Position numbers and translations under genes: made by a program. This document shows, piece by piece, positions 25,721-38,279 of a stretch of DNA of 64,000 nucleotides. The notes beneath the pieces are model-generated. The model had not been told where the DNA came from, ran no database searches, and saw only the letters and a program-made list of their open reading frames with translations. This DNA comes from a virus. Position 1 is the first letter of the stretch. Each line of letters begins with the position of its first letter. Location of the stretch: positions 1 to 64,000 of IMG/VR virus record IMGVR_UViG_3300034111_001103. One strand, given 5' to 3'.

Positions 25721-26461
25721 ATGAAATATCAAATTAAAGAAATTAAAGAATTTATTTTAAGATGCTATGCAAGTGCAGGGCAAAATTCAAATAGTGAGGA
25801 CGCAGCACTTTTAATAAATCTATTTTGTAGAGAGGTTGAAACGAATTGGAAAAGACATATAAGAATTACAAACAAAGGTCAAGAAAATGAAAACTGGAAC
25901 TTGAATGAGATATTTTACTTCATTGACTTAGGATTATCTAAAGTGTTTGGCGATTACTTTGGGATTAATTTAATCACTTTTAAGCAATTTGAACACGCTT
26001 ATAGCAAAAATGAAAATAGTTATTACAGAAAGCAATATTTGCTTAAGAATCCATTGCCAGTATTAGAAGCAATAGAACAACATACAGAAAGTGGCAAAGA
26101 TGAAATAGTAATTGATGCAATGATAAGTAAGCTAAAATCAAAGAATTATACAGATGCCGATTTGAATGTTTGGTATGACTTTTTAGAGCAAAAAGGAGCA
26201 ATAAAATTAGATAGATGGAAACAATATGAAACGGATGGAGCTGAAAAATACACACAGGAGTTACACAAACGCTCAAATTTTGCACAAAATAATAATTTGA
26301 AGGATTTATATAATGAAATAAAAAAAGCATTAGATTTGGCAAAAGAATTAAAATATGATGTAATTGAATTAGCTTACCACTCAAAGGTTCATTTTATGGA
26401 ATTAACTTTTTGCACAGATGAAAATATTAATAAACTAGAAACTTTTTTAAAAATTAAATAA
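25721..26461 (+). CDS. Hypothetical protein (replication module)
   Basis: 246 aa ORF in operon. Confidence 0.6.
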   Translation: MKYQIKEIKEFILRCYASAGQNSNSEDAALLINLFCREVETNWKRHIRITNKGQENENWNLNEIFYFIDLGLSKVFGDYFGINLITFKQFEHAYSKNENSYYRKQYLLKNPLPVLEAIEQHTESGKDEIVIDAMISKLKSKNYTDADLNVWYDFLEQKGAIKLDRWKQYETDGAEKYTQELHKRSNFAQNNNLKDLYNEIKKALDLAKELKYDVIELAYHSKVHFMELTFCTDENINKLETFLKIK

Positions 26462-26466
26462 ACTAA

Positions 26467-26646
26467 ATGGAAAAAGAACTCAAAGAACTTTTAAAGCTAA
26501 AAGAAAATGTAGTAAGATGGAATATGTGCGCTGAACTCGATGAAAGGCTAGGAGTAGACCCAACTAAATCAAATGAAAGTGCATTGTTTTACGAGCAGGA
26601 ATTGAATAGTAAATTGAAAAAGATTATTGAAACTTATGGGAAATAA
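26467..26646 (+). CDS. Hypothetical 59 aa protein; stop codon is the TAA of the first attC-like TAAC
   Basis: MEKELKELL...IIETYGK; not in ORF track. Confidence 0.55.
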   Translation: MEKELKELLKLKENVVRWNMCAELDERLGVDPTKSNESALFYEQELNSKLKKIIETYGK

Positions 26647-26762
26647 CGCCTACGGCTTGGCGAAGTTGCCGTATTCCAAATGCCAAATTGAAAAACAAAT
26701 GATAAATTTTAGTACAAATGTTAAATAGTAGTACAGAACGGCAATTTAGCCAAACCGATGTT
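26645..26762 (+). repeat. attC-like site 1 (118 bp AAC to GTT)
   Basis: AAC-GCCTA-CGGCTTGGCGAAGTTGCCGT ... ACGGCAATTTAGCCAAACCG-AT-GTT; 17/20 complementary. Confidence 0.8.
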
Positions 26763-27440
26763 ACAGGAAGCCCTTTTAGAGTGCTTAATCTTTACGCTTG
26801 TTTAGGTGGTAACAGATATAAATGGACTGATTGCGAAGTTACAGCAGTTGAATTAGATAGTGAGCTGGCACGAATGTATCAAGAGAGATTTCCAAATGAT
26901 AAAGTGATAATAGCAGATGCACACCAATATCTACTTGAACATTATAAAGAATTCGATTTCATTTGGACTTCGCCACCTTGCCCAAGCCATAGCAGAGTAA
27001 GATTTACACAAAAAAATAAAGACTTTTATAATCCTATTTACCCGGAAATGACTTTGTATCAAGAAATCATTTTTTTAGAAAATCATTTTGAAGGTAAATA
27101 TGTAGTTGAAAATGTGATACCATACTATGAGCCTTTAATAACTGCACAACAAAGAGGAAGGCATTTATATTGGTGCAATTTTAAATTACCTAATAATATT
27201 GATAGAGAAGAATTAAAAGGATTAGTTGGTGGGAATACAAAATATGAAGTAAAAAAACTTTGTAAGCTACACGATATTGATATTGACTTTTTAAAATCGT
27301 ATAAAGGCGAACAAAGATTAGATAAAGTGATTAGAAATCTTGTTGATTATGAAGCTGGCTTAAACATTTTCAATACAGCAAGAGGAATTATTAATAGGTC
27401 AAATGTTAAAAGTCCTTCACTCTTTGATGGTGTCTTTTAG
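26718..27440 (+). CDS. DNA (cytosine-5) methyltransferase-like, cassette 1
   Basis: VLNLYACLGG, WTSPPCPSHS, VVENV; first 14 codons lie inside attC-like site 1. Confidence 0.85.
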   Translation: MLNSSTERQFSQTDVTGSPFRVLNLYACLGGNRYKWTDCEVTAVELDSELARMYQERFPNDKVIIADAHQYLLEHYKEFDFIWTSPPCPSHSRVRFTQKNKDFYNPIYPEMTLYQEIIFLENHFEGKYVVENVIPYYEPLITAQQRGRHLYWCNFKLPNNIDREELKGLVGGNTKYEVKKLCKLHDIDIDFLKSYKGEQRLDKVIRNLVDYEAGLNIFNTARGIINRSNVKSPSLFDGVF

Positions 27441-27450
27441 GGTTTCCTGT

Positions 27451-27574
27451 AACGTTTGAGAATATGAGAAGTGGCGGGAAAAAAGGTTTGTAGTACCGAG
27501 TGTAAATCTGAAACCTTGAAATACCCATTAAGCTCGACAGTAGCCACTCTTAGCCATTTCTTATATTCTTTGTT
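27451..27574 (+). repeat. attC-like site 2 (124 bp)
   Basis: AAC-GTTTG-AGAATATGAGAAGTGGC ... GCCATTTCTTATATTCT-TT-GTT; 15/17 complementary. Confidence 0.8.
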
Positions 27575-27597
27575 ATAAAATCGTTTTAATGTTTTAT

Positions 27598-27721
27598 AAC
27601 GTAAAATAATAAAAGCAGTAGCGATATGAAAGAACAAATTGAAAATATATTGATAAAGGTTGATGAAGGCACGATGCCTGTTCAACAAGCACTAAGCGAG
27701 CTATTGCTTTTATTTAGTGTT
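27598..27721 (+). repeat. attC-like site 3 (124 bp)
   Basis: AAC-GTAAA-ATAATAAAAGCAGTAGC ... GCTATTGCTTTTATTTA-GT-GTT; 14/17 complementary. Confidence 0.8.
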
Positions 27722-27877
27722 AGCGGTTCGTTGCCATCTATTGACCCATTAGATGACGAGAATAGCGAAATACATAAAATAGGTAGAGAAATAGCTGAAA
27801 TGTCCGATGAAGAGTTTGATAATAATTGTAAAGCAATAACAGATATGCTGTCAAGGTCGAAAGGCAATGACCGCTAA
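27626..27877 (+). CDS. Hypothetical protein: 31 codons from attC-like site 3 fused to cassette 3
   Basis: ATG in hairpin loop, GTT = Val32, stop is the TAA of the next TAAC. Confidence 0.7.
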   Translation: MKEQIENILIKVDEGTMPVQQALSELLLLFSVSGSLPSIDPLDDENSEIHKIGREIAEMSDEEFDNNCKAITDMLSRSKGNDR

Positions 27878-27997
27878 CGTATGGGTATTGGCGAAGGGCA
27901 AGAATAGTAGTACCGATGTTCAACCTTTGCACAATGCTAAATAGTAGTACAACTGCTCAATTTATTACTTCTGCTTGCCTTTTGCCAATACATTGTT
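27876..27997 (+). repeat. attC-like site 4 (122 bp)
   Basis: AAC-GTATG-GGTATTGGCGAAGGGCAAG ... CTTGCCTTTTGCCAATACA-TT-GTT; 16/19 complementary. Confidence 0.8.
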
Positions 27998-28071
27998 GTA
28001 CGCTGTTTTTCTTTGGTATTCAGTACTTTACAAAGTATCTAAAAATAAATAATAAAATTTTAATAAAATTA

Positions 28072-28102
28072 TTTGGAAATTAAAATAAATGTTGTATATT
28101 TG
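28072..28102 (+). promoter_or_regulatory. Promoter internal to cassette 4
   Basis: TTTG (28072) + 19 nt + TATATTTG (28095). Confidence 0.65.
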
Positions 28103-28145
28103 TACTTGATAAGCAATTAAGCATATCACTAAAAAAAATAAAAAA

Positions 28146-28331
28146 ATGACAGCAAATTCAGTAGTATCAAGAGAAACATTCAATAATGATTTGAATAATT
28201 GCTTAACTATTTTAAGCAACTTGACAGAAAAAGAAAATATAAAAAGTGAAACTTATACTTACTACAAATGTGAGTATATATCTCCTGCGTTATACAAAAA
28301 AACAATAATTGTAGCTGTTTATGAAAATTAA
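28146..28331 (+). CDS. Hypothetical protein, cassette 4 gene 1
   Basis: ORF after internal promoter with A-rich leader. Confidence 0.6.
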   Translation: MTANSVVSRETFNNDLNNCLTILSNLTEKENIKSETYTYYKCEYISPALYKKTIIVAVYEN

Positions 28332-28479
28332 GAAAAAAAGCCCTGCTGGTAGAAAGCCTGTTGAAGATAAAAAAGTGGTTGTAAACTTATTTATTCGTCA
28401 GTCAGAATTAGACAAACGAGGTGGCAAAGAAGAAGTCCAAAAGTCTTGTTATGAGTTTTTGGGTGTGTCCGCAAAATAG
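28321..28479 (+). CDS. Small DNA-binding (RHH-like) protein, cassette 4 gene 2
   Basis: MKIKKKSPAGRKPVEDKKVVVNLFIRQSELDK...; stop TAG inside the cassette's right inverted repeat; not in ORF track. Confidence 0.6.
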   Translation: MKIKKKSPAGRKPVEDKKVVVNLFIRQSELDKRGGKEEVQKSCYEFLGVSAK

Positions 28480-28532
28480 CGTACAACTAGTAGATTGTAG
28501 AAATTAATTGTACAATAAAACATTAATTATCA

Positions 28533-28751
28533 ATGCAAATTTATACAAAATGGATAGCTTATGATGGATTAGTAGGAGTAACTGAAATTTACGAATACTA
28601 TGATTTAACAACTTGCAAAAGATTAATTAAAGAAGTGCATCAAGGCTCAATTTACTATAGAGAAAATGGAAGTAAAAAAAGGTATTCTTTTAACAAAATA
28701 AATAAAACTAAGAAATTAGAAAAAATTGAAATTATTAATTTACCATTTTAA
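28533..28751 (+). CDS. Hypothetical protein
   Basis: ORF in operon. Confidence 0.55.
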   Translation: MQIYTKWIAYDGLVGVTEIYEYYDLTTCKRLIKEVHQGSIYYRENGSKKRYSFNKINKTKKLEKIEIINLPF

Positions 28752-28762
28752 AATAAATAAAA

Positions 28763-29059
28763 ATGAAACTATCAAAACCAACAACTGCACTAACAGAGGT
28801 GCTTTATGAACTGCTCACAAAGAAAAGTATAAGCAATGCAGATTTGCCTTATATGTGGGGTTTCCGTTCAAGAATAAGCAATTTAACTACTAAGTATGGT
28901 ATTCAGTTAAATTCTACTATGATAACTGCTAAAAATAAGCATGGTAGAGCTTATTCATACGTACAACATCAGTTAATGAAAAGAAAAGATGCTTTAAAAA
29001 CCTATAATAAACTTATAGGAAATGAAAAAAAAGAAATTATCAAATATTTTAAAAAATAA
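28763..29059 (+). CDS. Winged-HTH protein
   Basis: GFRSRISNL..KYGI...KNKHGR pattern. Confidence 0.55.
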   Translation: MKLSKPTTALTEVLYELLTKKSISNADLPYMWGFRSRISNLTTKYGIQLNSTMITAKNKHGRAYSYVQHQLMKRKDALKTYNKLIGNEKKEIIKYFKK

Positions 29060-29775: not shown

Positions 29776-30028
29776 GCAACTATACTACCAAGCTAATAAA
29801 GAACAAATAAAAGCAAAGCAAAAGGAATGGAGAGCTAAAAATCCAGACTTAGTATATGCTAGTAAAGTTCATTTTAGAGCTAAGTATCAAAAAGAATTGC
29901 ACGATATTTACATTAAGGAAGTGCTAGTGAATAGAAAAGGATACAAACGCTCTGAAATAACTCCAGAACTTATCGAAATTCAAAGAAATATTATAAAACT
30001 AAGTAGATATGCTAAACGAACTAAATAA
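29765..30028 (+). CDS. Hypothetical basic protein
   Basis: YYQANKEQIKAKQKEWRAKN repeat-like motif. Confidence 0.55.
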   Translation: MNNRQLYYQANKEQIKAKQKEWRAKNPDLVYASKVHFRAKYQKELHDIYIKEVLVNRKGYKRSEITPELIEIQRNIIKLSRYAKRTK

Positions 30029-30212
30029 AGCCTTATTAGGGCAAATAAAGAAAATTGAATCTGAAAAGAATTTAGATACAGAGGTGTTAAAATCAAAAGA
30101 AATTTGTAGGTTGAGCAATCAAGTTATAAATTTGCATAAGTTAAATTTAGAAGCGCAAAAGCTGGAAAATTTGGGAGATGTGAAAGTATTGCATGAATTT
30201 TTTAAAAAGTAA
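30009..30212 (+). CDS. Hypothetical helical phage protein
   Basis: Overlapping ORF in operon. Confidence 0.55.
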   Translation: MLNELNKALLGQIKKIESEKNLDTEVLKSKEICRLSNQVINLHKLNLEAQKLENLGDVKVLHEFFKK

Positions 30213-32107: not shown

Positions 32108-32302
32108 TTACTTCATTCCAAACATATTCTTTAAATTCTCAAGTACATCATCATCATTTATTCCCTCATTTATTCCCCCATTTATTTTGATAATGTTTAT
32201 CTTGTTTTTCAATTTATTGATAGCGTCATTTTTGCTTTCAGCTTCTACTTCGTACTTCATCTTTTTGCCAAAAATTTCAAAGTAAATTTTATATGTTTTC
32301 AT
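32108..32302 (-). CDS. Hypothetical protein
   Basis: ORF in operon. Confidence 0.55.
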   Translation of the reverse strand: MKTYKIYFEIFGKKMKYEVEAESKNDAINKLKNKINIIKINGGINEGINDDDVLENLKNMFGMK

Positions 32303-37766: not shown

Positions 37767-38279
37767 ATGAACGAACAAAACAAACATTGGAGAGATGTGT
37801 ATAAATCTGACTACTTAGCTAGTTGGGACTTAGACAAAAAAGCTACACTAACTATTAAGGAGTGCAAAGCTGAAATGTGCAAACTTTCAAAAGGCAAAGA
37901 ATTAAAAGTAGTTGCATACTTTGAAGAGTTAGAAATGGCAAACAGAGTAAAAGTAAAACCTATGATTTTAAACCCTACAAATTGCAAGTTCATACAGGGT
38001 CGCACAAATTTACCAAAATATGCAGATTGGAGCGGATTATTAGTAGATATTTCAGTAGAAGAAAATAAAGGTGGTATTGGTGAAAAGTTTGGATTAAGAA
38101 TTGTAAATGTAGAATTTAAAGACAAGTCTAGAAAATTACTACCAGAGCTTAAATTTGAAACTCCACAATACAAACAAACGTACGAAAAGATATTAGCTGG
38201 TACTGTTACTATTGCAAAAGTAAAAGAATTTTACACACTAAGTAGTGAAGTTGAAAATGCTCTAAAATCTATAAAATAA
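37767..38279 (+). CDS. Putative ssDNA-binding/annealing protein
   Basis: KPMILNPTN...WSG..V...GLRI motif; coupled to exonuclease. Confidence 0.5.
   Translation: MNEQNKHWRDVYKSDYLASWDLDKKATLTIKECKAEMCKLSKGKELKVVAYFEELEMANRVKVKPMILNPTNCKFIQGRTNLPKYADWSGLLVDISVEENKGGIGEKFGLRIVNVEFKDKSRKLLPELKFETPQYKQTYEKILAGTVTIAKVKEFYTLSSEVENALKSIK

Follow-up and report, generated by a model that had tools for sequence, protein, structure and literature searches.

Candidate start codons inside attC-type hairpins of a probable reversed integron-type cassette array in a Bacteroidota phage

Introduction

Here, we report on four attC-type hairpins and the genes that follow them in a 64,000-nucleotide stretch of viral DNA (positions 1 to 64,000 of IMG/VR record IMGVR_UViG_3300034111_001103; hereafter the window). 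Our favoured reading, which we hold to be probable, is that these hairpins form an integron-type array of the kind known as a cluster of attC sites lacking integron integrases (CALIN), and that this array is reversed: the hairpin precedes its gene, holds the start codon of that gene and moves together with it. In the textbook integron cassette, a promoterless unit, the gene comes first and the recombination site follows. The window is AT-rich (∼29% G+C) and phage-like, and its four hairpin sites, S1 to S4, lie between 26640 and 28000, each flanked by a (T)AAC core on its 5′ side and a GTT core on its 3′ side.

An earlier note on the same DNA had placed the starts of two open reading frames (ORFs) inside these hairpin loops and had proposed that the site of the upstream cassette donates the start codon and the N-terminal peptide, so that reordering would create new fusions or switch a cassette on or off. 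The coordinates hold: the methyltransferase ORF starts at 26718 in the S1 loop and reads the GTT at 26760 as codon 15, and a smaller ORF, ORF83, starts at 27626 in the S3 loop and reads the GTT at 27719 as codon 32. The start and the first 14–31 codons are indeed encoded by the hairpin; however, the hairpin appears to move with its own gene and not with the upstream cassette. Near-identical cassettes in unrelated contexts share both hairpin and gene, which speaks against fusion or switching by reordering.

Results

Layout of the array

The sites, cassettes and genes of the array are as follows.

26639–26768, + strand: site 1 (S1), attC-type hairpin; TAAC core ending at 26647, arms 26653–26672 and 26738–26757, GTT 26760, loop ATG 26718.
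26648–27453, + strand: cassette 1, the S1 hairpin and the methyltransferase body; body ends 26760–26774 and 27439–27453, 15-nt inverted repeats.
26718–27440, + strand: C5 DNA methyltransferase ORF, 240 amino acids; first 14 codons hairpin-encoded, conserved domain from residue 20.
27445–27580, + strand: site 2 (S2), diverged attC-type hairpin; arms 27459–27475 and 27553–27569, GTT 27572.
27454–27600, + strand: cassette 2, empty, S2 and a 29-nt body (27572–27600); 9-nt inverted ends, no ORF.
27592–27727, + strand: site 3 (S3), AT-rich attC-type hairpin; arms 27608–27622 and 27700–27714, GTT 27719, loop ATG 27626, second in-frame ATG 27674.
27601–27878, + strand: cassette 3, S3 and a 160-nt body (27719–27878); body ends complementary.
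27626–27877, + strand: ORF83; 31 hairpin-encoded codons and a 52-codon body, the stop being the TAA of the closing TAAC core.
27870–28003, + strand: site 4 (S4), attC-type hairpin; arms 27885–27902 and 27974–27991, GTT 27995, loop ATGs 27916 and 27934.
27879–28487, + strand: cassette 4, S4 and a body with two self-starting small ORFs (28146–28331 and 28321–28479); ends with AAC 28485–28487.

In all four cassettes, the sequence from each GTT is the reverse complement of the sequence up to the next AAC (over 15 nt, with 93% complementarity, in cassette 1), and such complementary ends follow the logic of integron cassettes. The inverted repeat of S1 is 85% complementary and its + strand folds with −15.3 kcal/mol; the values on the + and − strands are −15.4 and −12.2 kcal/mol for S2 and −19.2 and −14.0 kcal/mol for S4, and at each of the four sites the fold is more stable on the + strand than on the − strand. 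Since the closing AAC of cassette 4 is not followed by a hairpin, the array ends there; the arrays of L012, L082 and L343 (L numbers are our labels for the sequences compared) likewise close with AAC and no hairpin. Four sister phages, with backbones 85–98% identical, carry different arrays between 26647 and 28485, and backbone homology restarts at 28485. Owing to the lack of an integrase or attI in the phage record, the array is a CALIN at most and not a complete integron.

The unit that moves

To follow the parts of a cassette separately, 112 sites (6216 pairs) were divided into the 200 nt upstream of AAC, the hairpin and the 200 nt after GTT, and hairpin identity was tabulated against body identity.

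Body identity at least 95%: 6 pairs, hairpin at least 85% identical in 5.
Body identity 85–95%: 10 pairs, hairpin at least 85% identical in 9.
Body identity 75–85%: 27 pairs, hairpin at least 85% identical in 12.
Body identity 70–75%: 20 pairs, hairpin at least 85% identical in 1.
All pairs (baseline): 6216 pairs, hairpin at least 85% identical in 7%.

When the bodies are at least 85% identical, the hairpins are so too in 14 of 16 pairs. The upstream flank is unshared in every pair of these four body-identity classes; where it is identical, in a single pair, the hairpins are unrelated. Near-identical cassettes have their left edge just past the upstream AAC and their right edge just past the TAAC of the body itself, exactly so in 10 pairs; the same edges delimit the cassette common to phage hemulen and L082, and homology between cassette 1 and the methyltransferase cassette of sister phage L343 begins at 26643, at the AAC. 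From these alignments, the mobile unit appears to comprise hairpin, start codon, gene and closing AAC, with the crossover at the 5′ AAC. As near-identical cassettes share hairpin and gene, normal reordering would keep the start codon with its own gene and would thus yield neither new fusions nor an on/off switch.

A covarying hairpin family

A search pattern built from the conserved arm sequences matched at least 120 viral and at least 120 bacterial contigs; the viral and bacterial site counts given throughout refer to the matches listed. The GTT lies exactly 5 nt past the pattern in 128 of the 136 viral matches listed. An alignment of 45 diverse sites shows no variation in the TAAC and GTTA cores (45/45) and a stem of ∼20 bp that is 96.1% paired, with compensatory double changes in 12 of its 19 pairs; sliding the partners by one to three columns as a control lowers the pairing to 38–52%. 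The alignment also shows the stem reaching further out than a model in which the spacer next to AAC is unpaired and the stem starts later, and that model was discarded. Two G·T wobbles in the stem are conserved, one of which is imposed by the search pattern and the other is not. The spacers are asymmetric (5 nt versus 1 nt), and no classical extrahelical bases were identified. The family sites measure 115–121 nt between the cores and have conserved loops.

The covariance model R1, built from sites of other phages, was then scored on the window. S1 (95.9 bits) and S4 (87.4 bits) are both in its training set; S2 (26.4 bits, E = 8.5e-6) and S3 (27.5 bits, E = 4e-6) are not. The model scored no other site in the 168.9 kb record, and an Rfam scan of 26000–29000 matched no family. 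The four window sites are members of a large, covarying attC family: they combine the features of attC sites, namely an imperfect inverted repeat, a single-strand hairpin fold and the AAC (R″) and GTT (R′) cores. A matching distal core, with the two ends of the body complementary to each other, was found for 100 of 129 family sites, the median body being 596 nt.

Bacterial arrays and the strand of the gene

The bacterial matches lie in Bacteroidota (among them Flavobacterium, Chitinophagaceae, Cytophagales and Sphingobacteriales). In all five bacterial arrays examined, the sites cluster beside a tyrosine recombinase gene, and the layout is a recombinase gene, a GTT junction and then repeated ORF-then-site units, with a single orientation throughout. 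Arrays of this kind are ordinary co-directional integron arrays. The recombinase scores 226 bits on NF040815 (‘tyrosine recombinase/integron integrase’; cut-off 220). In one array (L331 224–1900, Arundinibacter roseus) the recombinase has 558 amino acids, of which residues 285–548 form the recombinase domain; the N-terminal extension of ∼280 residues ahead of it has no family assigned.

The ORFs run opposite to the pattern strand in all five of these arrays, and the pattern strand is hence the attC bottom strand. The canonical point of bottom-strand cleavage in attC is the 5′ AAC. Across the family, the pattern strand is antisense for the ORF at 42 of 50 bacterial sites and sense at 92 of 100 viral sites; the phage hairpin therefore heads its gene. 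A promoterless ORF that precedes attC and has its own start is thus found in the bacterial arrays and not in the phages.

A start codon inside the hairpin

Among the viral sites, 68 precede an ORF of at least 60 codons that runs through the GTT, and 59 of these contain an ATG in frame with that ORF and open to the GTT. At the same 68 sites, the other two phases have an open in-site ATG in 23 of 136 cases (17%), against 87% in the ORF phase. The in-site ATG mostly lies 42 nt (phase 0) or 41 nt (phase 1) before the GTT, and an ATG at −42 or −41 is present at 65 of 118 viral sites versus 11 of 68 bacterial sites. The nine exceptions among the 68 have an ATG of their own at most 41 nt past the GTT. 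No silent combination of a hairpin with an out-of-phase body was found among the 68 sites, and such combinations thus provide no evidence for an expression switch.

The earlier note had assigned both window genes to the same phase, and each does read the GTT as a codon; family-wide, however, the sites fall into two main phases (phase 0, 39; phase 1, 32; phase 2, 5). It had also remarked that the bodies lack an ATG near their 5′ end, and the next in-frame ATG is indeed at residue 53 in the methyltransferase and at residue 58 in ORF83. Likewise, the S4 loop ATG at 27934 is out of frame, being 61 nt ahead of the GTT at 27995, and neither S4 loop ATG (27916, 27934) is in phase with the genes of cassette 4.

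The methyltransferase

The methyltransferase ORF matches PF00145 with 34.2 bits (cut-off 22) over residues 20–133, and its translation contains the PPC motif. Since the match is limited to the N-terminal third of the profile (positions 1–111 of 324), the enzyme is a short variant. With gp006 of Flavobacterium phage hemulen6-1 it shares 57% identity and the start-in-hairpin design; in that phage, three successive methyltransferase genes begin inside model matches. A 94%-identical site also underlies the methyltransferase coding sequences of phages mumin, filifjonk and tooticki.

Most viral homologues of the methyltransferase (78 of 82) begin with a Met of their own, two residues ahead of the first conserved strand (∼residue 20), with a stop just upstream. 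The cassette forms (the window, L012, hemulen/L082 and L343, and, with a second type of junction, L160 and L174) have lost this ATG and are fused to a hairpin leader; their leaders differ and the sequence from the GTT onwards is common. The abrupt switch of N-termini among homologues that the earlier note had expected at the V-(S/T)-G-S junction is thus seen, both for the methyltransferase and for ORF83. A start at the internal GTG of VLNLY, which would have undone its proposal, finds little favour: the GTG is not conserved in five other cassette-form methyltransferases, and the window GTG at residue 22 is GTC in L012, GTA in L343 and ATA in hemulen and L082. In L012, no ATG, GTG or TTG occurs ahead of the S-adenosylmethionine (SAM)-binding motif (motif I). 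Because the internal GTG is not conserved and L012 lacks any start before this motif, the loop ATG is the best candidate start codon, and we infer that translation begins there.

Exchange at the GTT side and the hairpin-encoded leader

As the bodies diverge, the linkage between hairpin and body falls, from 12 of 27 pairs at 75–85% identity to 1 of 20 at 70–75%. Exchange at the GTT side is accordingly real but appears much rarer than exchange at the AAC side, becoming visible once the bodies have diverged by ∼15–30%. The 160-nt body of ORF83 is 85–89% identical in the window, L336 and L339, and the 125 nt before the GTT are unrelated; an S3-type hairpin, 94% identical, heads a different body in L337. 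The protein homologues of ORF83, of which there are 103, give the same picture: the N- and C-terminal parts assort independently at the V/SGS junction, the S3-encoded leader is joined to at least 12 C-terminal parts unrelated to one another and the C-terminal part of the window ORF83 stands behind at least five different N-terminal parts. Occasional top-strand recombination, or else short-homology events, could account for such exchange.

The leader itself does not behave as a protein element. Identical arm DNA is used in two reading phases, which gives unrelated peptides. Comparison of the S3 leader between the window and L342 shows 17 non-synonymous codon changes versus one synonymous change, identity being confined to the arm-encoded ends. 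The latter count rules out the 31-residue S3 leader as a conserved protein domain. Given the two reading phases and the predominance of non-synonymous changes, the leader probably acts as a donor of the start codon and not as a shuffled domain.

Discussion

Proposed mechanism

We propose the following scheme. The segment 26648–28487 would be an integron-type array without integrase, a CALIN, inserted at a variable hot spot in a Bacteroidota phage backbone of ∼40 kb. The phage gene would lie on the attC bottom strand, the one that folds better and contains the conserved G·T wobbles, with the hairpin at its head. In ∼60% of the phage cassettes, the gene's own start would have been replaced by a hairpin-loop ATG, usually 42 or 41 nt before the GTT, such that the 3′ arm and the core are translated as a leader of 14–31 residues. 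The usual crossover would occur at the 5′ AAC, across the hairpin from the gene, and a rare GTT-side exchange would re-join the hairpin to another body and cause the abrupt N-terminal switches among homologues. An Xer/IntI-like enzyme of the host presumably performs the recombination.

Several points weigh against this scheme. No match to PF00589 (tyrosine recombinase) was obtained in the 168.9 kb record or in phage hemulen, and the bacterial recombinase reaches only 207 bits on TIGR02249 (integron integrase; cut-off 265), with model positions 178–239 unmatched. The linkage test covers the sites that match the search pattern. For the ORF83 body, the linkage between hairpin and body is already broken at 85–89% identity, and for some cassettes the exchange at the GTT side may therefore be commoner than stated above. 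Matches in the protein database over-represent open, in-frame combinations. Finally, alternative starts are possible in both window genes, at the GTG at residue 22 of the methyltransferase and at a conserved TTG four codons past the GTT in ORF83.

Alternative explanations

The model of the earlier note assigns the hairpin to the upstream cassette and the crossover to the point between G and TT on the gene-sense strand, as classical integron crossovers are written, so that reshuffling supplies new starts, fusions or on/off states. The exact switching of N-termini at the junction in the methyltransferase and ORF83 homologues, the two phase classes of hairpin and the five or more N-terminal segments found ahead of the ORF83 body all fit this model. 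Nevertheless, we regard it as unlikely: hairpins are shared in 14 of the 16 pairs with bodies at least 85% identical while the upstream flanks are unrelated, and the flank-sharing pair has different hairpins. Moreover, the arrays of the window, L012, L082 and L343 close with AAC and no hairpin, the phage gene-sense strand corresponds in the bacterial arrays to the attC bottom strand, with its canonical cut at the 5′ AAC, and out-of-phase silent combinations are absent, the nine exceptions having their own ATG within 41 nt past the GTT. It is still less probable that the loop ATGs are unused, that translation starts past the GTT (at the GTG of residue 22, or at the TTG in ORF83) and that the open hairpin frames are a by-product of an A-rich, stop-poor loop. 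The Pfam domain does begin at residue 20, where most homologues start; the leader peptides are not conserved as protein, and ∼40% of the phage cassettes self-start past the GTT. However, a by-product of loop composition is difficult to reconcile with an in-site ATG in the ORF phase at 87% of sites against 17% in the other phases, or with an ATG position fixed at −42/−41 and enriched in phage over bacterial sites; the internal start, for its part, lacks conservation, and none of ATG, GTG and TTG precedes motif I in L012.

A role at the RNA level has also been considered, in which the hairpins are terminators, processing sites or translation-control stems of a phage early operon and the cassette pattern results from homologous recombination, as for the promoter-early stem-loop (PeSL) elements discussed below. 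The hairpins do lie on the sense strand with wobbles compatible with G·U pairing, the start codon sits in an A-rich loop and the phage encodes no recombinase. As a full account, this is very improbable, since at 100 of 129 sites the complementarity is between the two ends of one body and not between adjacent bodies, cassettes are sharply bounded at AAC, in bacteria the arrays of this family stand beside a tyrosine recombinase with their hairpins on the antisense strand of the genes and Rfam gave no match; an RNA role alongside recombination may exist. A more speculative extension, which we put forward tentatively and consider rather doubtful, is that the phage attC hairpins have been co-opted as portable translation-initiation modules of two phase classes, with start-less bodies able to plug in behind any phase-matched hairpin; the bottom strand of the site would then also serve as an mRNA leader that carries a start codon. 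If so, new cassettes would arise from ordinary phage genes, as in the repeated independent replacement of the methyltransferase ATG, chimeric small proteins would be formed, as where the S3-type leader heads its various C-terminal modules, and a phase mismatch would be a reversible off state.

Relation to known systems

CALINs with methyltransferase cassettes have been described in virulent phages, including Polaribacter (Flavobacteriia) phage P12002L, and IntI1 recombines several phage attCs, which are outside the present site family; start codons within attC are not mentioned (Qi et al., 2023; PMC9892861). The array in the window resembles those CALINs in its imperfect-palindrome sites, AAC and GTT cores, complementary cassette ends, lack of an integrase, methyltransferase cargo and, apparently, bottom-strand bias. 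It differs in that the gene lies on the attC bottom strand with the attC ahead of it, the loop holds the candidate start codon, translation would run through the 3′ arm and core, and the sites are long with conserved loops. Our full-text literature search returned no description of this reversed, start-in-hairpin design. P12002L (L345) contains no strong member of the present family, only weak, short matches to the covariance model. These matches (30003–30061, 32218–32286 and 38030–38095) are 59–69 nt long, G+C-richer, on the strand of the genes and in gaps beside DNA-modification genes: the first and third lie between such genes, and the second is just upstream of a methyltransferase gene, where it overlaps small hypothetical ORFs. 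They may be short attC sites, likewise on the sense strand, but they overlap no gene starts.

Integrons with a co-directional integrase occur in several phyla. The chromosomal integrons of Treponema, with a co-directional (‘inverted’) integrase, are one such case (PMC3607928). The Bacteroidota arrays resemble this type in having recombinase and cassettes in one direction and an attI-like GTT junction after the recombinase. Unlike it, their recombinase resembles XerA-type models more than curated IntI, and the phage arrays lack a platform. Starts supplied by integron sites are known from ORF-11 in attI1 and from fused cassettes (review PMC8876359; PMC4670013). There, too, recombination-site sequence provides a cassette gene with its start codon or N-terminal residues, but the start is encoded by attI or results from accidental loss of attC; here, it is the regular design of most cassettes across the family, at a fixed position in the attC loop.

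The PeSLs of T4-type phages, reportedly described as mobile regulatory cassettes by Arbiol et al. in 2010, are thought to act by homologous recombination. Like the present hairpins, they are stem-loops found on either side of small accessory genes in hyperplastic phage regions, where they mark the seams of shuffling. In contrast, a PeSL consists of a promoter and a stem-loop, whereas the present sites have AAC and GTT cores, body-specific complementary ends and bacterial counterparts beside a tyrosine recombinase.

Implications

Over half of the distinct leader-dependent cassette ORFs (28 of 51) are DNA methyltransferases (20 N6/N4, 7 C5 and 1 D12), and this cargo, mostly orphan methyltransferases, suggests an exchangeable anti-restriction kit. 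If the favoured reading is correct, Bacteroidota phages run the same recombination sites as integrons in reverse, with the site first and the start codon inside it, and the phage arrays would be linked to the host recombinase family that adjoins the same sites in bacterial chromosomes. Such an arrangement would explain how anti-restriction methyltransferases are swapped in tightly packed phage operons without loss of expression. It would also provide a rule for gene callers and integron finders, namely that in these phages attC sites overlap coding starts and the annotated N-termini of such methyltransferases are partly site-encoded. Such sites are present in cultured Flavobacterium phages (hemulen, mumin, filifjonk and tooticki), which offer a tractable test system.

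Further observations on the sites and their surroundings

A 10-nt loop motif, ATAGTAGTAC, occurs at 26725–26734, 27904–27913 and 27941–27950. These three exact copies all lie in S1 and S4, which excludes a genome-wide promoter-like motif. By eye, its position appears to match that of a repeated GAAG-type motif in the loops of bacterial members, which suggests a conserved loop element, possibly a protein-binding site; a TAnnTTTG-type motif was not evident by eye in the loop consensus.

The TAA of the TAAC core is the stop codon of the preceding ORF in two instances, a 59-amino-acid ORF to the left of the array (stop at 26644–26646) and ORF83 (27875–27877). A TAA is present at the core position of 92 of 100 viral sites versus 28 of 50 bacterial sites, and the TAAC core may often double as a stop codon. 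The 59-amino-acid ORF (26462–26647) is absent from sister phages L341 and L342, where the first hairpin directly follows the stop of a 246-amino-acid ORF, at a TAAATAAC; the left border of the hot spot is thus itself variable. Directly to the right of the array, the backbone segment 28488–28521 is 95–100% conserved in the sister phages, whatever their last cassette; this is where an attI-like remnant would be expected.

The backbone around the array has its nearest relatives in contigs of 36–43 kb, and the record, of 168.9 kb (168,934 bases) with terminal repeats, is therefore probably a chimeric assembly; the array is unaffected. Lastly, the 29-nt body of the empty cassette 2 has a 96% identical copy in sister phage L340 (6843–6870), within an array that is otherwise different.

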